From positions 1 through 47,576 of the forward strand of contig CAZTYX010000001.1 in the NCBI GenBank assembly GCA_964617385.1: a stretch of DNA of 47,576 nt, given 5' to 3'. Below are positions 3,219 to 36,032 of this stretch, one piece after another. The notes beneath the pieces were generated by a model, which was not told the DNA's origin, did not search any database, and saw only the letters and a program-made list of their open reading frames with translations. Made by a program: the position numbers and the translations under genes. The stretch comes from an uncultured Flavobacteriaceae bacterium. Its GTDB lineage: Bacteria; Bacteroidota; Bacteroidia; Flavobacteriales; Flavobacteriaceae. How positions within the stretch are numbered: the first letter of the stretch is position 1; each line of letters begins with the position of its first letter.

Positions 3219-6200
3219 ATGAAACAAACAAATTTTAAACTTAAACATGCGTTCCGCTCCTTAATGATATTGGGAGCCATGCTCTTTTTGAGTGTAGGGG
3301 CTTATGCACAACAAACGGTTACGGGTAATGTGACCGATGGTGTGTCTCCCCTTCCTGGCGTGAACGTTATTATTAAAGGCACTACCCAAGGGGTGGTGAC
3401 TGACTTTGACGGAAATTTTTCCATTGAATTGCCCAACGGAGATGAGATTTTAGTCTTTTCTTACCTCGGCTTTACCACCCAAGAAGTGGCCGCTACAGAC
3501 AGCATGAATATTGTGCTAGACGCTGGCTCTGACGAATTGGAAGAAGTGGTGGTTACTGGTTATGGGGCACAAAGAAAAGCTACAGTTACAGGTGCCGTTA
3601 CCCAAATCAAAGGCGAGAGCGTTGTAAAATCGCCCGCTGTAGATTTAACCAATTCCTTGGCTGGTCGTTTGCCTGGTATTACCGTTCGACAAGGATCTGG
3701 TGAGCCTGGATATGATGGAGCTTCCATCAATATTCGTGGTTTAAACACCTTAGGAAATTCCAGTCCTTTAATTGTAATCGACGGTATTCCCGATCGTGAT
3801 GGTGGTATTGGCCGATTGAATCCACAAGACATCGAAAGCATTTCTGTGTTAAAGGATGCCTCCTCTGCCATTTATGGGGCACGTGCTGCTAATGGGGTAA
3901 TTTTGATTACCACGAAACGCGGTGCTACAGGAGAACCTTCTTTAGAATATAGCTTTAATGCTGGGTTTTCAACACCCACTGTATTTCCTGAAATGTCTAG
4001 CGCATTTGAATATGCAAGCATCATGAACGAGGTGCCAATTTACAAGAACATACCTTCTACCGAATGGGGTGCCGCTTGGAACAGTATTCAATCTACAGGA
4101 ACATATACTTCTGCCGGCAACGGAACTACTATAAATTCAAATTATAGCCCCGAAGCGGTGCAGGGATATCAAACGGGTAACGACCCATGGAAATACCCTA
4201 ACACCGATTGGTATAGAGACACCTTTAAAGAATGGGCGCCTCAACAACGCCACAATTTACAACTCTCTGGTGGTACTGAAAAAGTAAAATACTTTACTTC
4301 TTTAGGCTACATTTATCAAGATGCTATTTACGAAAATTCTGCCACCTACTACAAGCAATACAACTTGCGCATGAACTTGGATGCAGAAGTTAATGAATAT
4401 GTTAAAATGAATCTTGGGATAATGTCCCGTCGTGAAGACCGAAACTTCCCCACTGTGGGTGCCGGTGCCATCTTTAGAATGTTGCAACGTGGTCGCCCTG
4501 TGGAACCCGCCTTCTGGCCCACTGGAGAACCTGGACCAGATATTGAAAACGGACAAAACCCTGTGGTGGTTACAACCGGTGCTACTGGATATGTTAAAAA
4601 TCCTAAAGATTATATCCAAATTAACAGTGGTGTGACTATTTCCAACCCTTGGATTGAAGGCTTGGATTTGATAATCAACGGTTCTGTTGACGTAAATAGA
4701 GAAACCAACAAAAGATGGGAAACACCATGGAAATTATACGCATGGGATGGTGTGAATCGCGATTCTAGCGGATTGAGCGGAAACGTTCGTTCTCCCTTCA
4801 CCGATGCGCGTTTAACACAAAGCGCTAACTCTGTATTAAACTCAACCTTATCTGCGCAGCTAAAGTATGATTTTACCCTAGGTGAAAATCACGACTTTGG
4901 TTTGTTTGCTGGGGTAACAAGAGAACAATTTACAGGGTCTAATTTCTTTGCCTTTAGAAGAAATTATATTTCTCCTGCCATTGACCAACTTTTTGCTGGG
5001 GGTGCGCTAGACCAAAACACTGGTGGTTCTGCCTATGACAGAACGCGTTTAGGATATTATGGTAGAGTACAATACAACTACAACGATACCTATTTGGCCG
5101 AATTGCTTTTCCGTCGAGATGGTTCATACATCTTCCCAAAAGAAGGACGCTATGGTAACTTCCCTGGGATTTTGCTCGGTTGGAATATTTCAAACGAATC
5201 TTGGTTTGACGTAAGTGGAATCAACTATTTGAAATTTAGAGGTTCTTATGGTGAGATGGGTAACGATCAAGTATTCTACAATGGTAGTTTACAAGAATAT
5301 GCTTTCCTTTCTACCTTTGGATTCGGCGAATATCCTATCAACAGTCAGGTGGTTAAAACCTTATATGAAACTGTTTTACCCAACCCCAACTTTACTTGGG
5401 AGGTGGCGCGAAATACCAACATTGGTTTAGACGCCAAATTATTTGATCGTTTCAATTTAACCTTAGAATGGTTTAACAACCAACGAGACAATATTTTGAT
5501 CCAATTGCAAGGTAGCACACCTGCTTCCTCAGGAATTAGCAGCTTGCTTCCACCAACCAACTTTGGTAAGATGAACAACAGTGGTTACGAATTCTCTCTT
5601 GTATACAATGGAGGAGACACCAATTATGTTGATTCAAATGCTTTCCGATATAATATTGGAGTGAATGGAGGATACAATAAAAATGAAGTAGTCTTTATTG
5701 ATGAAGTGTCTGGAGCACCTGCCTATCAATTGCAAGAAGGAAAGCCCTTAGGTGCCTACTTGCTCTATGAAACAGATGGTGTGTTTAGAGATGCCAATGA
5801 TATTGCAGCCAACACCGTGGACTACAGCGGCGTTACACCACAGCTTTTGCCTGGTGACTTGCGCTTGGTAGACTACAATGGTGATGGCAAAATTGATGCT
5901 GATGACCAAGTACGTCAAGACAAGAGTTTTACACCACAATTCCAATATGGTATTACGTTAGATGTGAGCTATAAAAACTTTGATCTTTCTGTTTTATTCC
6001 AAGGATCTACTGGGGCATTGGCCTTGTTTAGTGGTGAATTTGGTGATATTGGAAACTACTATAAGTGGCAATATGACAACCGTTGGAGCATTGACAATCC
6101 AAGTAACGTTCACCCACGTTTAGCCCTACGTGGAGACACCTATTATTCGGGTGGTAATTTTGCAAACAACACTTATAATTATTTCAGCACTGATTATTTC

Positions 6201-6398
6201 CGTCTCAAAAACTTAGAGCTCGGATATAATGTGCCAGAGGCAAGTTTAAACAACAATTTTGTCTCAAACCTACGATTGTATGTGAGTGGATTGAATCTAC
6301 TTACTTTCTCAGCATTTGATATATGGGATCCTGAAGTAGCTGGTAGAGGGTATCCTATGTCAAAAGTGTTAAATGTTGGAGCCAGAGTAAACTTTTAA
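3219..6398 (+). CDS. susC: SusC/RagA-family TonB-dependent outer-membrane transporter
   Basis: 1059-aa ORF with a signal peptide ending AYAQQ. Has a carboxypeptidase-regulatory-like domain (VTGNVTDG..PLPGVNVIIKGTTQGVVTDFDGNFSI) and plug motifs (EEVVVTGYG, ISVLKDASSAIYGARAANGVILITTKRG). C-terminal residue is F. No N-terminal STN signalling domain is apparent. Confidence 0.95.
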   Translation: MKQTNFKLKHAFRSLMILGAMLFLSVGAYAQQTVTGNVTDGVSPLPGVNVIIKGTTQGVVTDFDGNFSIELPNGDEILVFSYLGFTTQEVAATDSMNIVLDAGSDELEEVVVTGYGAQRKATVTGAVTQIKGESVVKSPAVDLTNSLAGRLPGITVRQGSGEPGYDGASINIRGLNTLGNSSPLIVIDGIPDRDGGIGRLNPQDIESISVLKDASSAIYGARAANGVILITTKRGATGEPSLEYSFNAGFSTPTVFPEMSSAFEYASIMNEVPIYKNIPSTEWGAAWNSIQSTGTYTSAGNGTTINSNYSPEAVQGYQTGNDPWKYPNTDWYRDTFKEWAPQQRHNLQLSGGTEKVKYFTSLGYIYQDAIYENSATYYKQYNLRMNLDAEVNEYVKMNLGIMSRREDRNFPTVGAGAIFRMLQRGRPVEPAFWPTGEPGPDIENGQNPVVVTTGATGYVKNPKDYIQINSGVTISNPWIEGLDLIINGSVDVNRETNKRWETPWKLYAWDGVNRDSSGLSGNVRSPFTDARLTQSANSVLNSTLSAQLKYDFTLGENHDFGLFAGVTREQFTGSNFFAFRRNYISPAIDQLFAGGALDQNTGGSAYDRTRLGYYGRVQYNYNDTYLAELLFRRDGSYIFPKEGRYGNFPGILLGWNISNESWFDVSGINYLKFRGSYGEMGNDQVFYNGSLQEYAFLSTFGFGEYPINSQVVKTLYETVLPNPNFTWEVARNTNIGLDAKLFDRFNLTLEWFNNQRDNILIQLQGSTPASSGISSLLPPTNFGKMNNSGYEFSLVYNGGDTNYVDSNAFRYNIGVNGGYNKNEVVFIDEVSGAPAYQLQEGKPLGAYLLYETDGVFRDANDIAANTVDYSGVTPQLLPGDLRLVDYNGDGKIDADDQVRQDKSFTPQFQYGITLDVSYKNFDLSVLFQGSTGALALFSGEFGDIGNYYKWQYDNRWSIDNPSNVHPRLALRGDTYYSGGNFANNTYNYFSTDYFRLKNLELGYNVPEASLNNNFVSNLRLYVSGLNLLTFSAFDIWDPEVAGRGYPMSKVLNVGARVNF

Positions 6399-6417
6399 TT
6401 AGTAAAGAATTATAGTT

Positions 6418-8283
6418 ATGAATTATTTAAACAATGTAAAAACGAGATTAGCGGCAAGCATGTTAGCCCTTATGGTGATTTTCTATGCTTGTAATGATGA
6501 TTTTTTAGAAACGACCCCTTTGGATAAGATATCCAGTTCGGCCACATGGAGTGATGGAACGCTAGCTGAAGCATTTGTATTTAGTGTATATTCCTATTTG
6601 GGGTATGGCGGATTTGAAGAGCAAATGCAAGCAGTGTATACTGATGAAAGTATGTTTACTCACGCCGGTCGAAATATCAACACCTTCAACGAAGGGTCTG
6701 AAACACCTTCAAGCCTTGCTTGGACAAGTGGAACGTATAGCTGGAATTCAATGTATTCTGCTATTCGTCAGGCCAATGTAGCACTGGCAAATATTCCAGA
6801 AGCTACCTTTGATGACCAAGGGTTAAAAGATCAATTGATGGGTGAAGCCCATTTTTTGCGGGCCTATTATTATCACCAGTTACTTCGCTTCTATGGTGGG
6901 GTACCAATTATTGATAAGCCCTATACCCTAGAGGACGAGTTAACCATTGCTCGAAATAGCTTTGAAGAAACAGTAAACTTTATTGTTGCTGATTTAGACA
7001 AAGCGGCAAGTATGCTTAATGGAAAGTCATTAGCCGCCGGTAGAGCGTCGAAAGTGGCTGCTATGGCATTAAAATCAAGAGTATTGCTTTATGCTGCAAG
7101 TGATTTACACGAATCAAGCAAAGCTCCTTCAGGATTTAACTCACCACTGCACACCTATTCTGGTGGTCAACAAGGCCGTTGGCAAGCGGCACAAGCTGCT
7201 GCCAAAGCGGTTTTAGACATCACCACCGGTTACAAAACCGATTTGGCTGCACCCGTGAGTCATGCTGAAGGTATTGAAAACGCCATTGCAATTGCCATGG
7301 GAGGTAAAAGTGCCGTTGCCGATGCTGGAGCAGCTGCTGAATTGATTTTTCAGCGTACACTCACATCAGACTATAAGCCTGAAGACAACTGGCCCTTAGG
7401 TGGAACTCACTTTGGAGTGAATAACGGACCAAACGGTTATCACAACTGGAGTGGAAACCCACCCATCCAACAATTGGTAGACGACTATGAAATGATGGAT
7501 GGATCTAAATTTGATTGGTCTAATGCTACTCACAAAGCAGATCCTTATGCCAACAGAGACCCTCGTATGTATGCGACCGTTTTATATGATGGTGCTTCAT
7601 GGAAGCCAAGACCAGCTGATGTGGTAAGTTATGATCCGTATGATGAAATTCAAACAGGTTATTATGATGACGGAAATGGTGGTTTTGTTAATGGTGTAGA
7701 CACTCGTGAATCCCCCATCGAAAACTGGAACGGTAGTAGAACACACTATAACAATAGAAAGTTCATCGACCCTAACCCTGCGTTGGTGGATAACCTCACC
7801 AGCCATCAGGTACTCCCTTGGCCTTTTATTCGCTATGCAGAAGTTGTTCTAAATTATGTAGAAGCTTCCATAGAATTAGGACAAGAAGCAGAAGCGCAAA
7901 ATTGGTTGAATAAAACACGCTTTAGAGTGGGCATGCCAGCTATTACAGATAGTGGCGACGCACTCAAACAACGTTATCGCAACGAAAGACGTGTGGAATT
8001 GGCCTTTGAAGAGCACCGTTATCACGATGCCAGACGATGGCTCATTGCTAGTGAAACACTTGGCCGGGGTGTTAAAGTTATTAATGTAACTGCCACTCTA
8101 AAAGCGGGTAAATCACCAAACGTACCTTACAAACACGACAAGTCTGTATACGATTATACCTATGATGTTCAAAACGATACTTCTATCGAAAACAGAACAT
8201 GGAAGGATAAAATGTATTACCGACCCATTAGTCGTGATGAAATGAATAAAAACAACTTACTGGAACAAAATCCAGGCTACTAA
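6418..8283 (+). CDS. susD: SusD/RagB-family nutrient-binding outer-membrane lipoprotein
   Basis: 621-aa ORF starting 19 nt after susC. Lipobox is IFYAC followed by NDD. SusD-like motifs include RAYYYHQLLRFYGGVPII and ERRVELAFEEHRYHDARRW. Confidence 0.93.
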   Translation: MNYLNNVKTRLAASMLALMVIFYACNDDFLETTPLDKISSSATWSDGTLAEAFVFSVYSYLGYGGFEEQMQAVYTDESMFTHAGRNINTFNEGSETPSSLAWTSGTYSWNSMYSAIRQANVALANIPEATFDDQGLKDQLMGEAHFLRAYYYHQLLRFYGGVPIIDKPYTLEDELTIARNSFEETVNFIVADLDKAASMLNGKSLAAGRASKVAAMALKSRVLLYAASDLHESSKAPSGFNSPLHTYSGGQQGRWQAAQAAAKAVLDITTGYKTDLAAPVSHAEGIENAIAIAMGGKSAVADAGAAAELIFQRTLTSDYKPEDNWPLGGTHFGVNNGPNGYHNWSGNPPIQQLVDDYEMMDGSKFDWSNATHKADPYANRDPRMYATVLYDGASWKPRPADVVSYDPYDEIQTGYYDDGNGGFVNGVDTRESPIENWNGSRTHYNNRKFIDPNPALVDNLTSHQVLPWPFIRYAEVVLNYVEASIELGQEAEAQNWLNKTRFRVGMPAITDSGDALKQRYRNERRVELAFEEHRYHDARRWLIASETLGRGVKVINVTATLKAGKSPNVPYKHDKSVYDYTYDVQNDTSIENRTWKDKMYYRPISRDEMNKNNLLEQNPGY

Positions 8284-8310
8284 TTCATTTCCCTTTTTAA
8301 GGTTTAAGAC

Positions 8311-8348
8311 AATATATCCACTGTGTTTCGCAGTGGATATATTTTTTT
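8311..8348 (+). terminator. Rho-independent terminator after susD
   Basis: Perfect 12-bp stem ATATATCCACTG (8312-8323) pairs with CAGTGGATATAT (8331-8342). The loop is 7 nt (TGTTTCG), and the run of seven T at 8342-8348 begins with the last stem base. Confidence 0.85.
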
Positions 8349-8388
8349 AAATACCCAATCGCCAACCTATAAAAACAAAACTAATTTT

Positions 8389-11300
8389 ATGTTTTTACGT
8401 CGTTCTTGTTTTGTTGCATTGCTAATGATCTTTGTAAGCTGCAACACCCCATCTTCAGAAAATGAGCCCCTGTTTCGTGCCCTTACTCCCGAACAAAGTG
8501 GTATCACCTTTGAAAACACTTTACTAGAAGGCCCCAATACCAATGTGCTGGTTTACGAATATTTTTATAATGGTGGTGGAGTGGCCGTAGCCGATTTTGA
8601 TGGTGATGGATGGGAAGACCTCTATTTTACCGCCAATATGGGAGACAACAAAATGTATTTAAACCAAGGCGGACTTTCCTTTAAAGATGTTACAGAAGTG
8701 TCTCAAACAGCGGGCCGAAAAGGCCCATGGAAAACCGGTGTAACCACTGTAGATATAAATGGAGACAACCGCATGGATATTTATGTTTGCTACTCAGGAA
8801 TGCTGCCCGAAAACAAACGCAGAAACCAATTGTTCTTGAACATGGGGAACAATGAAAACGGTATTCCCACTTTTATTGATGCTGCCAAACTCTATGGCAT
8901 TGACGCGTCAGGATACAGCAACCAAGGGTTCTTTTTTGATTATGATCAAGACAATGATTTGGATTTGTTGCTGATGAATCACAATCCCAATTCCCTTCCC
9001 GTTTTGAATGAAGCACGATCAAAACAACTGCTGAAAATTGACGATTCTAACGCTGGACTTCGACTCTTTAAACAAGAAAATAATCGCTTTGTGGACGTAA
9101 CCCAAAGTGTAGGTTTGGTGGGATCGGGCTTGTCTTATGGATTGGGCATTGCCCTTGCCGATTATAACAAAGACGGCTGGATCGATTTTTATCTCTGTAA
9201 TGATTATACCGTACCCGATTATCTATACCTTAATAAACAAGGGCATTTTGAAAATGCACTTCAAAAAAGTATGGCGCACACCAGTCATTTTTCAATGGGC
9301 AATGATGCTGGAGACATCAATAACGACGGTTGGATTGATCTGATTACGCTTGACATGCTGCCAGAAGACAACAAAAGACAAAAATTACTTCGTGCGCCCG
9401 ATAATTACAATCAATATGATTTAAATTTAAAAAGCGGATTTCATCATCAAATTATGCGAAACATGGTGCAACTAAACAACGGCAATGGCACCTTTAGCGA
9501 AATTGGACAATTGATGGGCGTTTCCAACACGGACTGGAGTTGGGCACCCCTCTTGGCGGATTTTGATAATGATGGATGGAACGATTTGATGATCACCAAT
9601 GGCTATCGAAGAGATTATACCAACCGTGATTTTCTAAATTATATGGACACCTTTATTGCTGATAAAAAAAGTGCGCTGAGTCGAGAAGATGTAGTAGACA
9701 TCATCAAAGAGATGCCCGCTTCCAATGTGAGTAATTACATTTTTAAAAACGTTAAGGGATCTTATTTTGAAAATAAAACCAACGAATGGGGGCTACAAGA
9801 ACAGCGCAACAGCAATGGAGCTGCCTATGCTGATTTTGATAAAGATGGCGATTTAGACCTCGTCATCAACCACATTGACCAACCCGCAACGGTATATGAA
9901 AACCAAGGCATTTCCACAAATCATTATGTAACCATAGAACTCAATGGAGATGGAAAAAACAAACAAGCCCTAGGTGCAGAAATTAGTTTATTTGCTACTA
10001 AAACCCAACAAACAAAAACCCATTTGCCGGCCAGAGGCTATCTTTCTACCGTGAGCCAACGTACCCATTTTGGATTGGGTAGCGCCACTCAAATTGATTC
10101 TATTATAGTGCAGTGGCCCCATGGAAAAACAACGGTACACTACGATTTAAATTCTGATCGCTTGATTGCTCTAAGCCCCGAAAGTGCGGTTTCCCATCAA
10201 GAGCAAAAAAAGATTCAACCCTTGTTGGAAAAAGTTACCTCATCTTTATCACATACCATTATCCCTCCTAGCGTTTTAGACTTTGATAGGCAACCCCTCC
10301 TCCATTATCAACCCTCATTTGAAGGCCCCAAAATGATTGCTACTGATGTAAATAATGATGGATTAGAAGATATTTTGATTGGAGGAAGTCAAAATCTAGC
10401 CTCAACGCTATGGATACAAAATAAACAAGGTGATTTTATTCAAAAACCACAACCTGCATTCAAAAAAGATCAAGGAAAAGTAACCACCGATATAACCCTT
10501 TTTGATGCCGATGCAGATGGTGATTTAGATGTATTTGCCGCTCATGGAGGCTATCATTTACTTAAGGAAAATGATTCTCAACTACAAGACCAATTGTATT
10601 TAAACGATGGAAACGGTACTTTTTTACCCACCAATGGGCTTCCTGAAGATCAAATGGTGACGGCTGCAACCGCTACAGCCGATTTTAATGGAGATGGACT
10701 GCCAGATGTTTTCCTAGCCGGAGGCATCATCCCGGGAAAATACCCCAAACGGTATGCAAATAAAGTATTAATCAATCAAGGGAAAGCACTATTTAAAGCT
10801 CATAAATCATGGAACACCAAAGGCATAAACGATCACCCAGGCATTATTCGCGATGTGATTACAGATGATTTTAATGCCGATGGAAAACCCGATCTTTTAG
10901 TCGTTGGTGAGTGGATGGAACCACTTTTATGGATTAATAATGAAGAACATTTTGTGTTAGATACCACAGGAATTATTTCCAATACTACTCCGCTATTCGG
11001 GTGGTGGAATACCATTCAAAAAGCAGATCTAAATGGTGATGGAAAAACAGACTATGTACTAGGCAATGAAGGGCTAAATACACAATATCAAGCTTCTGCA
11101 AAAGAGCCCATCACCTTACAATTTGATGATTTTGATAAAAATGGAACACTAGACCCTATCTTATCATGCTATGTGCAAGGCGTTTCCTATCCCACAGCTA
11201 CACGAGATGAGTTGCTCGCCCAATGGGTGGAATTAAAATCGGTTTACACCTCCTATGAAGCTTTTTCTCAGGCAACATCCGATGACCTTTTGCCGCCTCA

Positions 11301-11697
11301 AAAAAATAAAACGGCTCAAAAATGGAAAGCGAATGAAATGCGATCTATGATTTTAATGCATGAAAAGGGTCGGTGGGTACCCAAACCACTGCCTCAAGAA
11401 AGTCAATTCAGCCCCGTTCGAACTATACTGGCCAAAGACATTGATGGTGATGGCCACCAAGATTTGGTTTTGGCCGGAAACAGAATGCATATGGCGCTAA
11501 AATTTGGCCGATCGGATGCGCTAATAGGTTCTGTTTTAAAGGGCGACGGTGCAGGAAATCTGTCACCTATTTCCCCTTTAGAACATGGATTAAACCTTCC
11601 TTTTGAAACTACTTCAGCAGTACAAATCCATAATCAAATCCATTTTTTGACAGCAGAAAATGGCATTATTACCTATCAAAAAACAACCCAAAAATGA
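8389..11697 (+). CDS. FG-GAP/VCBS repeat plus UnbV-ASPIC domain lipoprotein (CRTAC1-like), two propeller halves
   Basis: I start the gene at the ATG at 8389 (MFLRRSCFVALLMIFVSC, lipobox) rather than the track's GTG at 8323, which lies inside the terminator stem. There are seven DxDxDG-like loops (for example DFDGDGWEDLY, DYNKDGWIDFY, DFDKDGDLDLV), then an UnbV-ASPIC-like segment (HFGLGSATQIDSIIVQWPHGKT), then seven more loops. Confidence 0.85.
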   Translation: MFLRRSCFVALLMIFVSCNTPSSENEPLFRALTPEQSGITFENTLLEGPNTNVLVYEYFYNGGGVAVADFDGDGWEDLYFTANMGDNKMYLNQGGLSFKDVTEVSQTAGRKGPWKTGVTTVDINGDNRMDIYVCYSGMLPENKRRNQLFLNMGNNENGIPTFIDAAKLYGIDASGYSNQGFFFDYDQDNDLDLLLMNHNPNSLPVLNEARSKQLLKIDDSNAGLRLFKQENNRFVDVTQSVGLVGSGLSYGLGIALADYNKDGWIDFYLCNDYTVPDYLYLNKQGHFENALQKSMAHTSHFSMGNDAGDINNDGWIDLITLDMLPEDNKRQKLLRAPDNYNQYDLNLKSGFHHQIMRNMVQLNNGNGTFSEIGQLMGVSNTDWSWAPLLADFDNDGWNDLMITNGYRRDYTNRDFLNYMDTFIADKKSALSREDVVDIIKEMPASNVSNYIFKNVKGSYFENKTNEWGLQEQRNSNGAAYADFDKDGDLDLVINHIDQPATVYENQGISTNHYVTIELNGDGKNKQALGAEISLFATKTQQTKTHLPARGYLSTVSQRTHFGLGSATQIDSIIVQWPHGKTTVHYDLNSDRLIALSPESAVSHQEQKKIQPLLEKVTSSLSHTIIPPSVLDFDRQPLLHYQPSFEGPKMIATDVNNDGLEDILIGGSQNLASTLWIQNKQGDFIQKPQPAFKKDQGKVTTDITLFDADADGDLDVFAAHGGYHLLKENDSQLQDQLYLNDGNGTFLPTNGLPEDQMVTAATATADFNGDGLPDVFLAGGIIPGKYPKRYANKVLINQGKALFKAHKSWNTKGINDHPGIIRDVITDDFNADGKPDLLVVGEWMEPLLWINNEEHFVLDTTGIISNTTPLFGWWNTIQKADLNGDGKTDYVLGNEGLNTQYQASAKEPITLQFDDFDKNGTLDPILSCYVQGVSYPTATRDELLAQWVELKSVYTSYEAFSQATSDDLLPPQKNKTAQKWKANEMRSMILMHEKGRWVPKPLPQESQFSPVRTILAKDIDGDGHQDLVLAGNRMHMALKFGRSDALIGSVLKGDGAGNLSPISPLEHGLNLPFETTSAVQIHNQIHFLTAENGIITYQKTTQK

Positions 11698-13034
11698 AGA
11701 CTCAAATCTTATTTCTAGGACGCATCATACTGATTGCATTATTGTTCCAGCAATGCTCAACTAAATTACCCCAGCAAATTCCCGATTATGAGGTGGCGGC
11801 CAAATGGGCCGACATGACTTTATATATCACGCAACACACCCCAGCGAATTCGCCCACATTTGCTTCACGGTGTTTAGGTTATTTGGGACTTACACAATAT
11901 GAAGCCGTAGTGCATGGCTTTACCGATCACCAATCGTTGGTGGGTCAATTGAACGGTTTGGAGGATTTACCAAAACCCGATCCAACAAAAAACTATGCAT
12001 GGCCGTTGGTTTTAAATAAAGCGCAAGCGGTAATGCTGCGTTCTATTTACCTGCAAACATCAGATGAGAATAAGCACAAAATTGATTCATTAGAAAAGCA
12101 TCTAGAAGCCATTCTTTCGCAAAATATAACAAGAGCTCAGAAAAAGGCCTCAAACGCTTTTGGAGAAGCTTTGGCCTCAGCGCTTTTTGAATGGTCAAAA
12201 ACAGATGGTGGACACCGCGGATACCTCCAGAATTTTGATCCCCAATATACCCACAAAGAATTTCCAGGTTCATGGAAACCACCCCTATTTGCGCAATCCT
12301 TTAGCCATCATCCTTTGCATCCCTATTGGGGAAAAAACAGAACCTTTGCACCCAAAAATAAAAATTTACCACTACCCCAATTTATTCCCTATGACACATT
12401 GCCCGGAAGTCCCTATTACGAACAATTTAATGCTGTATATCAAAAAGGAAACACCCTCACCCCCGCCGAAAAGAAAACAGCCATTTGGTGGAGCGATGAT
12501 CCTGATGTTACCTTTAGTCCAGGGGGACACCTCTATTATATCGCTAACCAATTGGTGCGTTCCCAACAGCCTGATTTAATAAACGCCACAAAAACGTTTG
12601 CCGCATTAGGTATGTCTATTGCTGATGCTTTTATCAATTGTTGGAAATGGAAATACCATTTTTTTTCAGAACGTCCTAACACCTTCATCCCAAAGTTTAT
12701 CGATCAAAAATGGGAATCTTTTTGGCCGGACCCGCCTTTTCCATCTTTTCCCTCAGGACATGCAATACAAGCAGCAGCTGGCAGCAGAGCCCTACTTTCA
12801 ATATATGATAACAACACAGCCTTTGTTGATAGCGCTCATGTGGGACGGCCTAGAGATTATGTGCGCAACACACCCTTTGAAAGAAGACCTTTTAAAACCC
12901 TTTGGGAGGTGGCGTTAGAAACCGCCGATTCTCGTTTTTATGGGGGTATTCATACTGCCCAAGACAATGAAGTGGGACTCATGCAAGGAAAAATAATTGC
13001 TGAAAATATCATTGGGTTGCAATGGGAAAAATAA
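11694..13034 (+). CDS. PAP2-superfamily / vanadium-dependent haloperoxidase-like lipoprotein
   Basis: 446-aa ORF. Its ATG overlaps the upstream stop (ATGA at 11694-11697). Signal ends LLFQQC. All three shared PAP2/V-haloperoxidase motifs are present: KYHFFSERP (Kx6RP), FPSGHA (PSGH) and SRFYGGIHTAQD (SRx5Hx3D). Confidence 0.8.
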   Translation: MKTQILFLGRIILIALLFQQCSTKLPQQIPDYEVAAKWADMTLYITQHTPANSPTFASRCLGYLGLTQYEAVVHGFTDHQSLVGQLNGLEDLPKPDPTKNYAWPLVLNKAQAVMLRSIYLQTSDENKHKIDSLEKHLEAILSQNITRAQKKASNAFGEALASALFEWSKTDGGHRGYLQNFDPQYTHKEFPGSWKPPLFAQSFSHHPLHPYWGKNRTFAPKNKNLPLPQFIPYDTLPGSPYYEQFNAVYQKGNTLTPAEKKTAIWWSDDPDVTFSPGGHLYYIANQLVRSQQPDLINATKTFAALGMSIADAFINCWKWKYHFFSERPNTFIPKFIDQKWESFWPDPPFPSFPSGHAIQAAAGSRALLSIYDNNTAFVDSAHVGRPRDYVRNTPFERRPFKTLWEVALETADSRFYGGIHTAQDNEVGLMQGKIIAENIIGLQWEK

Positions 13035-14707
13035 ATCAAATTTATTTATTCCTGTTAGGTTCTACCCTTCTGTGGGGGCAACAATTTACAGACATCACCC
13101 AAACCGCTGGAGTGGATCACCACTTTGAAGTTTTTGAGGGTATGTTTGGCGGTGGGGTGGCTGTGCTAGACTTTAACAACGATGGATTTGAAGATCTATA
13201 CCTCACAGGCGGGCTTCAAAACGATCAATTATTGCAAAATAATGGCAACGGTACCTTTACCAATCGTTTTAATAACAGTGGCCTCGAATTGTTAAATAAT
13301 TATGCTACACAAGGAGTAGTGGCAGCTGATTTTAACCGAGACGGCTGGAAAGACCTCTTCATTACCACCATCACCCAAAACAACTTGGATCAAAAAATTC
13401 CAAGGGCCCAAAATTTTATTTTTCTCAACCAAGGCGATGGCACTTTTCAAGACAAAAGCAGTGCCTTTAAAATTGATAAAGCAGCCACTTTCAGCACTGG
13501 AGCAGCAGTTGGCGATATTAACCTAGATGGTTATCCCGATCTATATGTGGGAAATTATTTTACTGAATATGAGGGGGGCTTAAAGGAAATTAGCGACGCA
13601 ACCATTGTTAATGCCGGAAAAACAGCCAAGGGATTTCTTTATGAAAACAAGAACGGTAAAAAATTTAGCAATGTTTACAGTAAATATGGTCTCAAACACA
13701 GAGGATTTAGTTTTGGTGGCATTTTTACCGACTTTGATAATGACGCCGATATAGATCTCTTAATTAATAATGATTTTGGGTATAAGGCGAAACCAAATTA
13801 TTTACTAGAAAATAAATTTCCCGAAAAACAATTTGACTATGTAGCCAAAGAAAAACAACTGGATTTACGCATCAATGCCATGGGTGCTGCCACGGCAGAC
13901 ATTAACAATGACGGATGGTTAGATTATTTCATCACCAACATACGTTTTAATATGATGATGGTGAGCCAGTCGGATTCACTCACTTATCAAAACCAACTTG
14001 AAGCCTTGGGTATGCAACATTTTGCAATCAGTTGGGGGGCCAATTTTGCTGATTTTGATCAAGATGGTGATGTGGATCTTTTTGTCTCCAATGGCGATCT
14101 CAATCCAAATTGCCAAGCCATGTATAATTTCTATTTTGAAAATACGGGTACTGGATTTATAGAAAAAAGTGGCGCTGTTGGACTTAAAGATTACGGCATT
14201 GGAAGAGGATCTGCTGTATTTGATTTAGAAAATGATGGTGACTTAGACCTTGTTGTCATTAACCAAGCACCCACCATGCCCTATGGCCCGCCATCCATCA
14301 CAAGAATATACAGAAACGATGTAACAAAAGGCAACTACCTAAAAATTAAACTCATAGGAAAGGCTGCAACGCCATCTGGCTTTGGTGCGCGGGTTAGACT
14401 TTATGCTAATGATTTGCATTTGCAACAGGAAATAGATGGCGGCAACTCGAGTCACCTCTCTCACAATTCTACCCTGGCCCATTTTGGTTTAGGTGCGCGC
14501 ACCATCGTTGATTCGCTTGTGGTAACCTGGCCAGGGGGGTATCAACAAAAGAAATATAACCTCCCCGTAAATCAATTGGTTACCATCATAGACGATCGGC
14601 CGTTTAAAAAACCATTTTTTAATTCCCAGATAATATGGATTATGGGTTTGGGACTGCTGCTTATATGTCTTTTGTTAGTTTATAATAAATTTAAAAATCG
14701 TGTGTAA
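13022..14707 (+). CDS. FG-GAP repeat plus UnbV-ASPIC protein (CRTAC1 family) with C-terminal transmembrane anchor
   Basis: 561-aa ORF overlapping the upstream gene by 13 nt. Signal peptide is LLGSTLLWGQQ. It has seven DxDxDG-like loops, an UnbV-ASPIC-like motif (HFGLGARTIVDSLVVTWPGGYQQ) and a hydrophobic C-terminal helix (IIWIMGLGLLLICLLLVY). Confidence 0.85.
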   Translation: MGKINQIYLFLLGSTLLWGQQFTDITQTAGVDHHFEVFEGMFGGGVAVLDFNNDGFEDLYLTGGLQNDQLLQNNGNGTFTNRFNNSGLELLNNYATQGVVAADFNRDGWKDLFITTITQNNLDQKIPRAQNFIFLNQGDGTFQDKSSAFKIDKAATFSTGAAVGDINLDGYPDLYVGNYFTEYEGGLKEISDATIVNAGKTAKGFLYENKNGKKFSNVYSKYGLKHRGFSFGGIFTDFDNDADIDLLINNDFGYKAKPNYLLENKFPEKQFDYVAKEKQLDLRINAMGAATADINNDGWLDYFITNIRFNMMMVSQSDSLTYQNQLEALGMQHFAISWGANFADFDQDGDVDLFVSNGDLNPNCQAMYNFYFENTGTGFIEKSGAVGLKDYGIGRGSAVFDLENDGDLDLVVINQAPTMPYGPPSITRIYRNDVTKGNYLKIKLIGKAATPSGFGARVRLYANDLHLQQEIDGGNSSHLSHNSTLAHFGLGARTIVDSLVVTWPGGYQQKKYNLPVNQLVTIIDDRPFKKPFFNSQIIWIMGLGLLLICLLLVYNKFKNRV

Positions 14708-14767
14708 ATTTATTTCAAATTCTGTTTTTTACTATCTTGTTGATGGTTTAACTGATTTGATGATAGA

Positions 14768-15973
14768 ATGAAAGCAACACGATTTAACAAAACCATCCCC
14801 CTTTTATTTCTTTTCTTTTTCCTTCAGTGCTCAAAAAATGAAGAAATAAACACCCCACTTTCTACCTTTAACCTTCGTACTGAAGTATATCCTGAAAACA
14901 CTGGAAACATTACGCCCGCTCCTGGTGTATATAAAGAGGGAATTATCAAAACTGTGTATGCTAGACCCGAACCCGGTTATATGTTTGATCATTGGGAGGG
15001 GATCATCAATGGCCTAGACAACCCGTGTGTGATTGCTTTTTATGTAGATCATGATATACGAGCTGTTTTTAAAAAAGACACCCTTTCTAAAAGAGTGGTG
15101 GCAGGTGGCAATGGCAAAGGAATTAACGAAGACCAATTTGACTATCCCACGGGTATTGCGCTGAATCAAGCGGGTGATATTTTTATCAGCGATATGCATA
15201 ACCATCGAATTCAAAAATGGAAACGCGGTGCCAACAAAGGAACTACTGTGGCAGGGGGTTATGGATTTGGATCGCATCCGGCACAGCTCGACACCCCCGG
15301 CAATATTGTTTTGGATAAAGAGGGATCCATTTATATAACCGACTCAGGCAATCACAGAATTCAGAAATGGAAAATGGGGGATGAAATTGGAGAAACCGTC
15401 ATTGGGCATAAGGGGGGCGGAAGTGGTTTGGATCAATTGGACACTCCCTTTGGTATTGCATTGGATGTAAACGGTGATATATATGTGAGTGAAATTAATA
15501 ATCACCGCGTAACCAAATGGAAATTTGGAGCCGCATCTGGTGAAGTGGTAGCTGGTGGAAATGGAGAAGGCAATGGCCCCAATCAATTGGCCTATCCATT
15601 GGGGATTTGTATAGATAACGAACAAAACCTTTACATTGCTGACAGTTATAACCACAGGATTCAGCTTTGGAAACCGGGTGCCAAAAAAGGGATTACATTA
15701 ATTGAAGGAAAAAAATTAGAAGATGGCTATCACTTTTTTAGCGGGGTGACATTAGCCAATAAAAATACTCTTATCATTTCTGATTATGATAAGAAAAACA
15801 TTCTCCGTTATCACTTAAACGAAAATTCTTTAGATACTTTAAGTTTCAATTCTTCTGATGTGTCACTGGGATTAAATCATCCCTATCAAGTGGCTGTAGA
15901 TGCACTTGGTGATTTAATCATTACCGATGCTAAAAACAATCGCATTCAAAAATGGAAACCCAAATCTAACTAA
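14768..15973 (+). CDS. NHL-repeat six-bladed beta-propeller lipoprotein with an N-terminal InlB-B-repeat-like domain
   Basis: 401-aa ORF with lipobox FFFLQC followed by SKNEE. The N-terminal segment YARPEPGYMFDHWEG resembles the bacterial B-repeat domain. Repeats NHRIQKWK, NHRIQKWK, NHRVTKWK, NHRIQLWK and NNRIQKWK are present. Confidence 0.85.
   Translation: MKATRFNKTIPLLFLFFFLQCSKNEEINTPLSTFNLRTEVYPENTGNITPAPGVYKEGIIKTVYARPEPGYMFDHWEGIINGLDNPCVIAFYVDHDIRAVFKKDTLSKRVVAGGNGKGINEDQFDYPTGIALNQAGDIFISDMHNHRIQKWKRGANKGTTVAGGYGFGSHPAQLDTPGNIVLDKEGSIYITDSGNHRIQKWKMGDEIGETVIGHKGGGSGLDQLDTPFGIALDVNGDIYVSEINNHRVTKWKFGAASGEVVAGGNGEGNGPNQLAYPLGICIDNEQNLYIADSYNHRIQLWKPGAKKGITLIEGKKLEDGYHFFSGVTLANKNTLIISDYDKKNILRYHLNENSLDTLSFNSSDVSLGLNHPYQVAVDALGDLIITDAKNNRIQKWKPKSN
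15200..15958 (+). repeat. Intragenic NHL repeat array (N-H/N-R-x-x-x-W-K cores)
   Basis: Cores lie at 15200-15223, 15350-15373, 15500-15523 and 15650-15673, which is an exact 150-nt period. A fifth core is at 15935-15958, after one degenerate blade. Confidence 0.8.
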
Positions 15974-31121: not shown

Positions 31122-32066
31122 CTATTCGCTAAAGAGGGTTTGCACAAAATGAGCTGCATCAAAGGGTTGCAAATCTTCAATGCCCTCACCCACTCCAATA
31201 TATTGTATGGGAATTTGAAATTGATCGGCAATGCCAAGAACTACACCCCCTTTGGCTGTACCATCCAACTTGGTTATGGCTAAAGCATTTACTGCCGTTG
31301 CCGCTGTGAACTGTTTGGCTTGTTCAAAGGCATTTTGTCCTGTAGACCCATCCAAAACCAACAACACTTCGTGGGGGGCGCTGGGCACTACTTTTTCCAT
31401 CACACGTTTCACTTTGGCCAATTCATTCATTAAATTGACCTTATTATGCAATCGCCCAGCAGTGTCAATAATGACTACTTCACTTTTTTGAGCCACGGCC
31501 GATTGTAAAGTATCGAAAGCCACCGCGGCCGGATCGCTGCCCATTTCTTGACGCACAAGAGGCACCTCCACCCGATCGGCCCAAATTTGCAGCTGGTCTA
31601 TGGCGCCAGCCCTAAATGTGTCTGCTGCACCAAGCAACACCTTTTTCCCAGATTGCTTAAACCGATGGGCCAATTTACCAATGGTGGTTGTTTTGCCCAC
31701 CCCGTTTACACCCACTACCATAATTACATGAGGCAAAGAAGGTGTTGGTTTGTCCTCTTTTTTTTGGGATCCCTCTAAAATCTTAATTAACTCTTCATTA
31801 AGCATTGATGCTAAGACCTTGGTGCCTAAATATTTCTCTTTGGCTACTCGTGCTTCAAGAGCTTCAATCACTTTAAGGGTGGTGGCCACCCCCACATCCG
31901 ACTGTATTAAAACGGCTTCCAACTCATCCAACACTTCGTCATCCACTTTTGACTTGCCCACTAAAGCTGTGCCCAATCGTGAAAAAAAAGCGCTTTTAGT
32001 TTGGGCCAAGCCAGCGTCTAACTTCTCTTGCTCCTTTTTGCCAAAAAATTTTTTTAATATGCCCAT
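31122..32066 (-). CDS. ftsY: Signal recognition particle receptor FtsY
   Basis: 314-aa ORF with the SRP GTPase motifs GVNGVGKTTTIGKLA, DTAGR and TKLDG. Confidence 0.96.
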   Translation of the reverse strand: MGILKKFFGKKEQEKLDAGLAQTKSAFFSRLGTALVGKSKVDDEVLDELEAVLIQSDVGVATTLKVIEALEARVAKEKYLGTKVLASMLNEELIKILEGSQKKEDKPTPSLPHVIMVVGVNGVGKTTTIGKLAHRFKQSGKKVLLGAADTFRAGAIDQLQIWADRVEVPLVRQEMGSDPAAVAFDTLQSAVAQKSEVVIIDTAGRLHNKVNLMNELAKVKRVMEKVVPSAPHEVLLVLDGSTGQNAFEQAKQFTAATAVNALAITKLDGTAKGGVVLGIADQFQIPIQYIGVGEGIEDLQPFDAAHFVQTLFSE

Positions 32067-32074
32067 GCTGCCCT

Positions 32075-32106
32075 AAAATAAAAAAAGCTACTCTAAAAGT
32101 AGCTTT
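32075..32106 (-). terminator. Rho-independent terminator after the rpmB-rpmG-DUF4295 unit
   Basis: On the minus strand there is a 9-bp stem: AAAGCTACT (rc of plus 32098-32106) pairs with AGTAGCTTT (rc of plus 32084-32092). The loop is 5 nt, and TTTTTATTTT follows the stem. The stem ends 17 nt before the ftsY ATG. Confidence 0.7.
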
Positions 32107-32125
32107 CTTTATTCAATTATCTTGA

Positions 32126-32278
32126 TTATTGTTTGTCTAACCATTCGTTGGCCATATCTGGCGGAATGATTGTTTCAACAAAGCTATAGGATTGGCTGTC
32201 GCCTTTTTTTACCATTTTAATTGCTTTGGTCAATCTTTTGGACCCTGTTTGTAGGGTTGCTACTGATTTCTTTGCCAT
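32126..32278 (-). CDS. DUF4295-family small protein (50 aa)
   Basis: Not in the ORF track because it is under 60 aa. Hand translation gives MAKKSVATLQTGSKRLTKAIKMVKKGDSQSYSFVETIIPPDMANEWLDKQ. It sits directly after rpmG, the position conserved in Bacteroidota. Confidence 0.75.
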   Translation of the reverse strand: MAKKSVATLQTGSKRLTKAIKMVKKGDSQSYSFVETIIPPDMANEWLDKQ

Positions 32279-32280
32279 GA

Positions 32281-32463
32281 TTATTTAATTTCTTTATGAA
32301 CCGTCATTTTTTTCAAAATGGGGTTGAATTTTTTAACCTCCAAACGCTCGGGAGTATTCTTTTTGTTTTTGGTAGTAATGTATCGTGAAGTTCCAGGCAT
32401 GCCCGAATCTTTGTGTTCTGTACATTCCAAAATTACTTGTACGCGGTTTCCTTTTTTTGCCAT
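32281..32463 (-). CDS. rpmG: 50S ribosomal protein L33
   Basis: 60 aa: [18 protein letters not shown]...[18 protein letters not shown]. Confidence 0.96.
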
Positions 32464-32466
32464 GAC

Positions 32467-32706
32467 TTAGCCTTTATAGGTGCCCTTTTGACGAGCTTCT
32501 TTTAAAACAGCTGTAATGCCTTTTTTGTTAATTGTCTTTAAGGTTGCAGCAGATATATTTAATGTGATCCAACGGTTTTCTTCTGGTAGGAAGAAACGTT
32601 TCTTAATAATATTAGCATCAAAACGACGGCGGGTGCGGTTTAGGGCATGCGACACGTTGTTGCCAAACATCACTTTCTTGCCACTAATTTCACATACTTT
32701 AGACAT
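32467..32706 (-). CDS. rpmB: 50S ribosomal protein L28
   Basis: 79 aa: [32 protein letters not shown]. Confidence 0.96.
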
Positions 32707-32728
32707 CTTCTTTATTTTTATGTGGCTG

Positions 32729-32758
32729 CAAATTTAATCTTTTTATGGGAGATACAAA
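32729..32758 (-). promoter_or_regulatory. Candidate rpmB promoter (-7 TAAATTTG plus -33 TTTG)
   Basis: The minus strand has TAAATTTG at 32729-32736, 22 nt upstream of the ATG. A TTTG lies at 32755-32758, giving an 18-nt spacer. Confidence 0.55.
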
Positions 32759-32822
32759 GAAAGTTTGGGCATAATTTAAATTCTCTTGGTTAAAAAAAAT
32801 TATTATGTACTGAAAAAAATTA

Positions 32823-32830
32823 TACCTTTG
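32823..32830 (+). promoter_or_regulatory. Candidate -7 box (TACCTTTG) for the YHS-to-NRDE operon
   Basis: A perfect TAnnTTTG match sits 22 nt upstream of the ATG at 32853. I found no clear -33 TTTG. Confidence 0.45.
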
Positions 32831-32852
32831 GAATCCAATCTCTTATCATCAA

Positions 32853-33326
32853 ATGACCTATCTATACTCCTCTCGATTTTTACTTGTTCCTTTATTTTTG
32901 TTTCACTGTTTGACTTTTAGCCAGAACACAGAAACACATCTTAATCTAGATAAGAATAACCTTGCTGTTTCCGGCTATGATTTGGTTGCCTACTTTGACA
33001 CAAAGGCCATTAAGGGCAGTTCAAAGTTTGAACTAACCTATGATGGAGGAATTTACCGATTTCACAATCAAAAAAACAAATTGCTTTTTGAGGAAAATCC
33101 AGTGAAATACTTGCCACAATATGGAGGCTGGTGTGCTTACGCCATGGGCTATAATGGAGAGAAAGTTTCTATTAATCCGGAATCCTTTAGCATTGAAAAC
33201 GGCAAACTGTATCTTTTTTATAAAACCTTTTTTAATGATACAAAAACAAAATGGTTAGAGAATACTAAAGTTTTGAAAGAAAAAGCTGATGAAAATTGGA
33301 ATAACTATATAACAAATGAAAATTAA
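32853..33326 (+). CDS. YHS-domain-containing secreted protein (Cys form of the YHS (seleno)protein family)
   Basis: 157-aa ORF with a signal peptide. Motifs are SGYDLVAYFD, YRFHNQKNKLLFEENPVKYLPQYGGWCAYAMG and NGKLYLF. Confidence 0.75.
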   Translation: MTYLYSSRFLLVPLFLFHCLTFSQNTETHLNLDKNNLAVSGYDLVAYFDTKAIKGSSKFELTYDGGIYRFHNQKNKLLFEENPVKYLPQYGGWCAYAMGYNGEKVSINPESFSIENGKLYLFYKTFFNDTKTKWLENTKVLKEKADENWNNYITNEN

Positions 33327-33727
33327 TGAAAATAAAAATTGACTTTCTTTTGCGTATAATCACAGCTGTAATTTTATTACAATCGTTGTATTTTAAATTT
33401 ACAGGACATTCCGAAGCAGTGCATATTTTTTCTACATTAAACGCTGAGCCATGGGGGAGAATTACTTTAGGCTGGATTGAACTTGTTGTTGGCGTATCAC
33501 TTCTATTTCCCAAAACAAAATTTTATGGCACACTTGGTGCAATTGCCTTAATGCTTGGAGCTATTTGTGTCCACTTGTTCACATCAATTGGCATTGTAGT
33601 TCAATGGGGAGAAAAATCTGATAATGGGCAACTTTTCACCATGTCTATTGTGGCATTCTTATGTAGTGTTTTGAGTTTTTATATTCAAAAGAAAGCAACT
33701 CTAAATAAACAACCGTCTAGAATTTAA
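33326..33727 (+). CDS. DoxX-like small integral membrane protein
   Basis: 133-aa ORF with about four predicted TM helices. Its ATG shares one base with the upstream stop (TAATG). The DoxX-like assignment is recognition-level only. Confidence 0.5.
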   Translation: MKIKIDFLLRIITAVILLQSLYFKFTGHSEAVHIFSTLNAEPWGRITLGWIELVVGVSLLFPKTKFYGTLGAIALMLGAICVHLFTSIGIVVQWGEKSDNGQLFTMSIVAFLCSVLSFYIQKKATLNKQPSRI

Positions 33728-33742
33728 AAGCACCTTGTTCTC

Positions 33743-35963: not shown

Positions 35964-36032
35964 GAAGCTATTGTTATTTGCATAAAATATTCATTACCTA
36001 AAAATATAAGCTTATTACTTAATTCGTTATGC

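Follow-up and report, generated by a model that had tools for sequence, protein, structure and literature searches.

What does a SusC/SusD pair import when no recognisable carbohydrate-active enzyme (CAZyme) is encoded behind it? Such pairs are routinely taken to signal glycan use when marine and soil metagenomes are interpreted, and the question is raised here by a stretch of 47,576 nucleotides from an uncultured Flavobacteriaceae bacterium (GenBank assembly GCA_964617385.1, contig CAZTYX010000001.1, positions 1–47,576; hereafter the window), in which susC and susD open a run of six genes on the plus strand (3219–15973). An earlier sequence-only reading of the window had proposed that these six genes form an undescribed system built on the Sus scaffold. 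We find that five of them make up an envelope-spanning uptake-and-processing operon, one that is real, widely conserved among environmental Bacteroidota, and apparently undescribed, as no account of this locus type was found in the searchable full-text literature. The earlier proposal stands in this respect, but not for its sixth gene, which lies outside the conserved unit. The operon belongs among the Sus-type uptake systems; what is new is its conserved cargo, and it is not a categorically new system.

The five-gene core and its conservation

The six open reading frames (ORFs), a canonical susC–susD pair and then four genes, were confirmed in both coordinates and domains. The first, susC (3219–6398), encodes a SusC/RagA-type TonB-dependent transporter of 1059 residues with a signal peptide and CarbopepD_reg_2 and Plug domains (847 bits to TIGR04056). 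Starting 19 nucleotides 3′ of its end is susD (6418–8283), whose product is a 621-residue SusD/RagB lipoprotein with SusD_RagB and SusD-like_3 domains and a lipobox ending in FYAC, followed by NDDF. Next is the gene that we call FGbig (8386–11697), for a CRTAC1-like lipoprotein of 1103 residues, in which a propeller, an UnbV_ASPIC domain, and a second propeller succeed one another. Its mechanical ORF opens at a GTG (8323; 1124 residues), though the lipoprotein signal MFLRRSCFVALLMIFVSC begins at the ATG at 8386, and the shorter protein named in the earlier reading is thus the right one. Behind FGbig are the gene for a 446-residue lipoprotein of the vanadium haloperoxidase (VHPO)/PAP2 fold (11694–13034; hereafter the enzyme), with Cys21, two helical bundles, and an intact oxyanion site, and FGsmall (13022–14707), for a 561-residue protein with a signal peptide, a single FG-GAP propeller, an UnbV_ASPIC domain, and a C-terminal transmembrane helix. 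The FGbig stop and the enzyme start overlap as ATGA (11694–11697), and the enzyme overlaps FGsmall by 13 nucleotides (13022–13034), both as already described. The last gene (14768–15973) codes for a 401-residue NHL propeller lipoprotein with six blades (five NHL repeats by Pfam).

To place this arrangement in a wider setting, an enzyme alignment was scanned against one genome per species, which gave 318 relatives, and the best 80 loci were compared after labelling their ORFs by similarity to the proteins of the window. These 80 come from Flavobacteriaceae (marine metagenome-assembled genomes, Flagellimonas, and Maribacter), Saprospiraceae/Lewinellaceae, Cyclobacteriaceae, Chitinophagaceae, Emticicia, Arcicella, and Cytophaga. 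Here, SusC, SusD, and FGbig are found immediately upstream of the enzyme in 47 of the 51 loci with sufficient flank, and FGsmall immediately downstream in 69 of 73 testable ones, with the departures being fragmented assemblies or local rearrangements. The order susC–susD–FGbig–VHPO–FGsmall spans at least six families, and these five genes are a conserved unit and not a chance grouping. Moreover, the median gaps across loci (−4 nucleotides between FGbig and the enzyme, −13 between the enzyme and FGsmall) show that the tight coupling of the three genes is conserved as well. The locus is frequently met in Tara and JGI metagenomes, and also in freshwater and soil lineages (Arcicella, Emticicia, and Chitinophagaceae).

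The gene order set out in the earlier reading is therefore general for its first five genes, but not for the NHL gene, which had been taken as part of the system. This gene is confined to the marine Flavobacteriaceae clade of the window (7 of the 80 genome loci, L002–L007 and L009, and the metagenome loci L086 and L087), and is a lineage-specific accessory outside the core. Its product gives only generic NHL propeller matches (NCBIfam and PDB sequence search), and a ScyF-like enzyme was rejected as a candidate, with a score of 110 bits against a cut-off of 350. As a side observation, a protein of about 700 residues, DUF255 thioredoxin-like and with a weak GH127-like region, is encoded 3′ of the NHL gene in sister loci of the window (L007, 14290–16389, and also L001 and L009); the window lacks it and has mnmA as the next gene. 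No flanking gene is general. The commonest are FecR (11 loci), DUF1080, a DUF7133-HEAT-cytochrome c protein, LacI, and GntR, with the DUF1080 ‘3-keto-disaccharide hydrolase’ located 3′ of the core in 10 related loci from three families. In the close clade, the downstream genes are mostly unrelated housekeeping or variable ones, which limits the core to five genes.

Within the core, it is SusD that is best conserved, with a median identity of 64% to orthologues in other families, followed by SusC and the enzyme (59% each), FGsmall (54%), and FGbig (48%). SusD proteins of different polysaccharide utilisation loci (PULs) are usually strongly divergent. Conservation of this one across marine, freshwater, and soil lineages suggests a single defined ligand for SusCD, and one that would be chemically uniform. 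The nearest solved structure to SusD (PDB sequence search) is 3QNK, an uncharacterised lipoprotein, and the absence of any riboswitch or other Rfam family at E ≤ 1 in positions 1–17 kb means that there is no riboswitch clue to the ligand either.

As for regulation, the earlier reading had found neither a regulator nor an STN domain on SusC. Both statements hold for the window: SusC has no STN domain by Pfam or NCBIfam, domain scans revealed no regulator within 1–16 kb, and the rest of the window, as scanned, comprises housekeeping genes with no regulator seen. They do not hold for related loci, of which 11 have FecR upstream of a SusC of about 1170 residues (the one such SusC scanned, from L016, matches STN at 27.4 bits, just below the Pfam cut-off of 28.4), while LacI is found in three orthologous loci and GntR in four. 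The lack of a regulator and of STN is thus a trait of this lineage and not of the system.

More conspicuously, a hairpin with a T-run (8311–8350, plus strand; 15-bp stem) separates susD from FGbig. It lies 28 nucleotides past the susD stop (8311–8343 in the scan), with a minimum free energy of −26.1 kcal/mol (z = −7.2). At the equivalent position, 61 of 63 related loci (L001–L116) have a hairpin with a T-rich tail, whose stem sequence varies between clades, and perfect stems of 8 bp or more were counted in 35 of the 63, as against 11 of 315 shuffles. It is also the sole standout of our promoter/terminator scan, in which promoter-like sites were no more frequent than in shuffled sequence. This hairpin and U-run is probably a partial terminator, an attenuator, or a 3′ stabiliser that separates the dosage of susCD from that of the downstream genes, and as such it would keep susCD expression above that of the three genes that follow.

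The resemblance to a canonical PUL such as Sus of Bacteroides thetaiotaomicron therefore has its limits. Shared are the tandem susC and susD, the lipoproteins encoded directly downstream, and the one-strand operon, as is control by extracytoplasmic function (ECF) sigma/anti-sigma factors, LacI, or GntR in sister lineages of the window locus. What differs is the lack of a CAZyme in the core and of a regulator within 1–16 kb, a SusD unusually conserved across orders, a component predicted to be anchored in the inner membrane, and a cargo of two CRTAC1-like propellers and a VHPO-fold enzyme.

The two-bundle enzyme and its propeller partner

The PAP2/V-haloperoxidase-like lipoprotein of the earlier reading is, judged by its alignments and predicted model, related to the crystallised Zobellia iodoperoxidase Zg-VIPO1 (PDB IDs: 4CIT and 4USZ) and, like it, built of two bundles. 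Our Pfam scan assigned to it a PAP2 and a weak VCPO_N domain (VCPO_2nd and PAP2 in the precomputed Pfam annotation), and no NCBIfam model matched. In the PDB sequence search, it aligned over its full length with Zg-VIPO1 (4CIT; E = 2.9e-39, 28–30% identity). A Foldseek search with the AF2 model (pLDDT 77.8) placed 4USZ/4CIT first (TMt 0.75), and then the Curvularia vanadium chloroperoxidase (VCPO; PDB ID: 1VNC) and Streptomyces NapH1/H3. The model has the two four-helix bundles of VHPO architecture. Class A acid phosphatases (PhoN/PhoC) share with the enzyme the motifs KxxxxxxRP, PSGH, and SRxxxxxHxxxD, all intact and including the final aspartate, but they have a single bundle of about 220 residues, whereas the enzyme, at 446 residues, has an extra N-terminal bundle typical of VHPOs. 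Accordingly, these single-bundle phosphatases match the model only weakly (E ~0.07–0.3, TMq ~0.27), and neither their architecture nor the integral-membrane core of other PAP2 phosphatases is found here.

Both clades, that of the window and that of Zg-VIPO1, carry the same active site. In an alignment of 12 sequences spanning the two, K320, R327, S354, G355, H356, R414, and H420 are identical in all, as are W317 and F349. Across 79 diverse homologues, K320, R327, H356, and R414 never vary; H420 is kept in 78, and the one other sequence has a gap at that position of the alignment. We take the seven oxyanion residues to be those that coordinate vanadate in VCPO and Zg-VIPO1, and the equivalents of W317 and F349 to line the VHPO halide pocket. 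The HxxxD aspartate (D424) is invariant in a 15-sequence alignment of the window’s clade, whereas most members of the Zg-VIPO1 clade have Ala or Ser there. By sequence, a vanadate site and a phosphate site are indistinguishable. Vanadate-loaded acid phosphatases also oxidise halides in vitro, and the iodide oxidation by Zg-VIPO1 thus does not fix an in vivo role. PDB entry 3BB0 describes, by its title, a phosphate intermediate trapped in apo-VCPO performing dephosphorylation.

Zg-VIPO1 has in common with the enzyme its length (about 450 residues), its lipoprotein nature, and its two-bundle fold, but differs by a 12-residue insertion (VTRGHLMFATKK), by the lack of the GGHRGYL and QSFSH segments of the window’s clade, and by an alanine for the HxxxD aspartate. 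The Zobellia orthologue of the enzyme is P0096 (61% identity), which is encoded inside the five-gene core. Zobellia vIPO3 (ZGAL_2250) was rejected as the orthologue, its neighbours being a globin, catB, and ccdA.

The two clades also have the same kind of partner. A protein of Zobellia sp. OII3, identical to Zg-VIPO1 over the 424 residues queried, is directly preceded on the same strand by three tandem genes for FG-GAP/UnbV lipoproteins of about 1100 residues. Two FGbig-like genes precede the orthologues of Maribacter algarum and Pricia, and in Aurantibacter there are two at a distance of about 6 kb (tandem propeller loci of this type are L082, 3–11353; L083, 3377–11350; and L085, 3177–11356). 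These propeller proteins are 34–36% identical to FGbig over their full length (~1080 residues), and no mention of them as neighbours of Zg-VIPO1 was found in the papers searchable. By the numbering of locus tags, ZGAL_1259 presumably belongs to this set of three propeller genes preceding Zg-VIPO1. The Zg-VIPO1 operon differs from the window locus in its two or three tandem large propellers and its lack of FGsmall. No SusCD was seen within 10 kb in Maribacter and Pricia, where xylA, xylB, and an SSF transporter are found upstream; in Zobellia, the sequence read reached as far as the three propeller genes. The gene ZGAL_1259 (‘ASPIC/UnbV FG-GAP’) is listed among those differentially expressed on fresh algae (Brunet et al., 2022; PMC9296495 supplement).

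Further afield, when metagenomes were scanned with a mixed alignment, 63 more distant VHPO-fold genes emerged, 20 of them with at least 3.5 kb on both sides. An FGbig-like gene lies within 4 kb in 13 of these 20 loci, and SusC or SusD homologues in five. This recurrence with and without SusCD indicates that the conserved functional couple is a double CRTAC1-like propeller with a two-bundle VHPO-fold lipoprotein. The pair predates its association with Sus, and in the window’s clade has become fixed to SusCD and to a third, membrane-anchored propeller. Two side observations concern these relatives. A GyrI-like small-molecule-binding protein of about 300 residues is encoded beside the Zg-VIPO1-type propellers (L082, 11360–12259; L084, 4206–5117; L122, 3335–4231) and is absent from the window’s clade. 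Some distant VHPO-fold genes also adjoin DUF4249 genes (L131, L140, L142, L144, and L163), which in L140 and L163 lie among ORFs of about 800–920 residues that we assumed, without a domain scan, to be putative non-SusC TonB-dependent receptors; if so, this neighbourhood would further link the enzyme family to TonB-dependent import.

The surroundings of the pair in the sister clade are catabolic. Genes whose products are about 50% identical to Zg-VIPO1 sit in catabolic operons (among them L115, L122, L143, L145, L147, L151, and L160). In 10 sister-clade loci, genes for GH65 enzymes with a signal peptide are placed either between FGbig and the enzyme or immediately 3′ of the latter; a GH37 trehalase is encoded in L143 and L145; and ROK and PfkB sugar kinases and MFS transporters occur as well. 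An MIP/GlpF channel is located directly 3′ of the enzyme in seven sister-clade loci, followed by GlpK and GlpD in three, and minimal FGbig–enzyme–GlpF units (L132, L149, and L155) would most simply release glycerol in the periplasm and then take it up. The order SusC–SusD–FGbig–enzyme–GMC oxidoreductase–GH30–GH3 is seen in L115 and L147. In L163, GH30, GH3, and a xylose-isomerase-like TIM barrel are also present, though neither SusC/SusD nor an adjacent FGbig was detected there. Through these neighbours, the propeller–enzyme module looks linked to carbohydrate or polyol metabolism, which questions a purely halogenating role for the Zg-VIPO1-type clade. They also weaken the earlier suggestion of a non-classical substrate.

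Might the enzyme nevertheless be a true vanadium haloperoxidase? With hydrogen peroxide and a halide, it would then form hypohalous species in the envelope that modify or fragment a propeller-held substrate, with SusCD importing this substrate or its products; alternatively, it could serve iodine or peroxide handling at algal surfaces. In support are Zg-VIPO1 as nearest relative in both sequence and fold, the conserved vanadate ligands and pocket Trp/Phe, and the propeller partners held in common. Moreover, some loci (L007 and L016) have thioredoxin- or peroxiredoxin-like genes 3′ of the operon, and Arenibacter C-21, which has at least five Zg-VIPO homologues, accumulates iodine in a manner that requires glucose, O2, and calcium (PMC5064120). 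A GMC oxidoreductase adjoins the enzyme in four distant loci and was considered as a periplasmic source of H2O2, but signal peptides are missing from the GMC proteins, and a Gluconate_2-dh3 subunit is encoded next in L145, from which we judge them to be dehydrogenases and not oxidases that form H2O2. In or near the core, no other source of H2O2 was found. Halogenation has, in addition, no obvious role in the GH65, trehalase, GlpFKD, and sugar-kinase operons of clade-mates, freshwater and soil lineages often carry the locus, and the in vitro oxidation of iodide is not decisive for the reason given above. Taking both sides together, we regard a haloperoxidase as a serious but somewhat unlikely explanation.

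Propeller proteins and the span of the envelope

The earlier reading described the large protein as a double FG-GAP/UnbV-ASPIC one. Two propellers are indeed present (eight FG-GAP_3 stretches), but Pfam detects a single UnbV_ASPIC match, between them. Calcium-type Dx[DN]x[DN]G motifs number 12 in FGbig and five in FGsmall. In both proteins, an FG-GAP propeller precedes an UnbV_ASPIC domain, which is the architecture of the CRTAC1/ASPIC-UnbV family, and databases name their homologues ‘CRTAC1 family protein’ or ‘enediyne biosynthesis protein E4’; in NCBIfam, the propellers gave only sub-threshold matches to an XAC2610-related domain. By PDB sequence search, FGsmall matches murine CRTAC1 (PDB ID: 9ETN) at E = 1e-18, and the same structure is the best Foldseek match of its model (pLDDT 80.5, pTM 0.84), with E = 5.9e-31 and a TM of 0.72. 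An FG-GAP calcium propeller followed by an UnbV_ASPIC β-sandwich is thus common to these proteins, animal CRTAC1/ASPIC, and enediyne UnbV (E4). The bacterial proteins differ from animal CRTAC1 in being lipoproteins or membrane-anchored, in the duplicated propeller of FGbig, and in sequence (~21% identity), and no Pfam match beyond FG-GAP and UnbV_ASPIC was detected that would correspond to the extra C-terminal module of the animal type. We know of no biochemical function for any CRTAC1/UnbV member, and the comparison therefore gives no mechanism.

Could the locus then be an ordinary PUL in disguise, with the propellers as unrecognised glycan lyases or hydrolases, or as glycan-binding proteins, and the enzyme as an accessory, for instance in the removal of a substituent? 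The position of FGbig behind susD is, by textbook, the usual slot of surface glycan-binding proteins, and the related loci have sugar-type regulators and CAZyme neighbours. Some of the much weaker fold matches of FGsmall can be read likewise, being the sugar-converting aldos-2-ulose dehydratase, the fungal GlcNAc lectins PVL and AAL2, and the Streptomyces UmbA4–‘TUA’ complex (teichuronic acid, in our reading of the PDB title), next to integrin heads. However, the absence of a recognisable CAZyme, as first noted from the sequence, was borne out. For the six genes, Pfam and NCBIfam scans, PDB sequence searches, and a Foldseek run with the FGsmall model yielded no family of glycoside hydrolase (GH), polysaccharide lyase (PL), carbohydrate esterase (CE), or sulfatase. 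A known CAZyme fold for the propellers was likewise rejected, since no GH or PL stands near the top of the FGsmall fold matches and the top 50 hold no polysaccharide lyase and only three sialidases (rank ≥ 33, TM ~0.33–0.40), a resemblance that we ascribe to the propeller shape in general. So conserved a SusD, across orders, is also atypical for PULs that target heterogeneous glycans. We consider an ordinary PUL to be improbable.

The targeting signals bear on where these proteins act. Lipobox cysteines are conserved in SusD, FGbig, and the enzyme. FGsmall, by comparison, is not a lipoprotein, as it has a signal peptide of the cleavable type without a lipobox. Its C-terminus (encoded at 14600–14704; IIWIMGLGLLLICLLLVYNKFKNRV) is a hydrophobic helix followed by basic residues, and its AF2 model also ends in a helix. 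The 70 FGsmall orthologue C-termini inspected by eye share this hydrophobic-then-basic ending, with no conserved sorting motif before it. From this, FGsmall is predicted to be a periplasmic propeller anchored in the inner membrane, and with such an anchor the gene set would span the envelope.

A module outside nutrition, that is, one for adhesion, signalling, or the handling of a metal (vanadium or calcium) behind a TonB-dependent gate, is suggested by integrin-like and CRTAC1-like propellers rich in calcium motifs, by a core without a catabolic enzyme, and by the FecR and STN-SusC variants, which imply trans-envelope signalling. Against this are the translational coupling of the propellers to an enzyme whose catalytic site is fully conserved, the catabolic neighbours of the sister clade, and the LacI and GntR regulators. 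A non-nutrient role accordingly seems to us very improbable.

Substrate, reaction, and meaning of the system

Our favoured reading, to which we give a probability of about 0.38, is that the enzyme works in the periplasm as a phosphoesterase, with an anionic phospho-glycan or a polyol-phosphate as its substrate, and we prefer it to a haloperoxidase. Here, SusC and SusD would capture a chemically invariant ligand at the outer membrane and import it, with the flow presumed to be inward. This substrate would be an anionic glycan bearing phosphate esters or a polyol-phosphate, for example, a teichoic-acid-like or phosphoglycerol-substituted polymer. FGbig, the predicted calcium-binding double propeller and regular partner of the VHPO/PAP2-fold lipoprotein, and FGsmall, tethered to the inner membrane and facing the periplasm, would bind the polymer through their calcium sites or possibly cut its diester bonds, with the VHPO-fold protein serving in vivo as the phosphoesterase. 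Several observations argue for this reading. A periplasmic enzyme encoded near a glycerol channel and secreted α-glucosidases would most simply free glycerol or sugar from a phosphate ester, and it has the catalytic residues of a PAP2 phosphatase, HxxxD among them in the window’s clade. The dephosphorylation by apo-VCPO named in the title of 3BB0 and the regulators of related loci (LacI or GntR of sugar type, or FecR with an STN-SusC) are further points in its favour. As to the substrate, the many calcium sites of the propellers would suit the binding of a polyanion, and the conserved SusD a uniform backbone.

A number of points weigh against a phosphoesterase. Biochemistry is available for one relative alone, and it is as a vanadium iodoperoxidase that this protein is annotated and was crystallised. 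The putative halide-pocket residues are, moreover, widely kept among the 79 homologues (W317 in 74, F349 in 73). The sister clade with the glycerol and GH65 context is only about 29% identical to the enzyme of the window, and in the window’s own clade a GlpD-like gene is found near the core in L041 alone. No recognisable phosphodiesterase is present in the locus, no Pho-type regulation was seen, and we know of no precedent for catalysis by CRTAC1-like propellers. Finally, acidic-residue counts after the lipobox cysteine are consistent with surface export for SusD, and assign neither FGbig nor the enzyme to one side of the outer membrane.

If the phosphoesterase reading holds, the nearest concept is that of the PusCD loci of Flavobacterium, in which SusCD-like transporters stand beside phosphoesterases instead of CAZymes, with the import of organic phosphorus as their proposed task (Lidbury et al., 2021; PMC8115612). 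In the window locus, SusCD stands beside a possible phosphoesterase fold, but the regulators of its related loci are of sugar or ECF type and not of Pho type, and the PusCD paper contains no mention of PAP2, FG-GAP, VCBS, haloperoxidase, or propeller components.

A bolder proposal, which we hold to be doubtful, is that an FGbig-like propeller and a VHPO-fold lipoprotein together form an unrecognised two-component enzyme machine with new chemistry, fed by TonB-dependent import. Its reaction could be the cleavage of a phosphodiester-linked glycopolymer, assisted by the calcium propeller, and then dephosphorylation, or a breakdown of glycosides driven by peroxide and halide.

Upstream of susC, three divergent genes on the minus strand (1–2983) may be associated with the locus. 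They encode a partial xylose-isomerase-like TIM barrel (1–660), a GFO/IDH/MocA oxidoreductase with a Tat-type (twin-arginine) signal (680–2005), and an FGE-sulfatase-like secreted protein (2012–2983), the last of which is kept only within the window’s own clade. Pairs of the oxidoreductase and TIM-barrel type serve oxidative (3-keto) glycoside cleavage in other systems. On the opposite strand 3′ of the locus are the housekeeping genes mnmA, yidC, and pyrG. Elsewhere in the window, a stretch of low G+C (32000–36000; 0.32–0.34 compared with about 0.41 in the remainder) holds a plus-strand run of ORFs (32853–35963) with one faint TTL-like match, and may be an island; it is unrelated to the Sus locus.

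For the family, what the present analysis adds to the sequence-only reading is a phylum-wide five-gene core, a conserved intercistronic hairpin, a component predicted to be anchored in the inner membrane, and a module in common with the only characterised bacterial iodoperoxidase. A widespread SusCD locus, with relatives in at least 318 species-level genomes, that has no CAZyme and a conserved SusD points to an abundant and uniform substrate missed by annotation. The locus also joins three questions, namely the role of bacterial CRTAC1/UnbV propellers, a family that includes a conserved gene of enediyne clusters; the in vivo role of Bacteroidota VHPO-fold proteins, for which, to our knowledge, there is only the in vitro iodide oxidation by Zg-VIPO1; and the non-glycan or modified-glycan cargo of Sus-type machines. 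Genetics and biochemistry are feasible in culturable carriers, among them Flagellimonas, Maribacter, Zobellia, Arcicella aurantiaca DSM 22214, Flavilitoribacter nigricans DSM 23189, and Neolewinella litorea. Should the two-component machine prove true, the physiological role of Zg-VIPO1 would be catabolic rather than halogenating, and the bacterial CRTAC1/UnbV family would have its first biochemical function.

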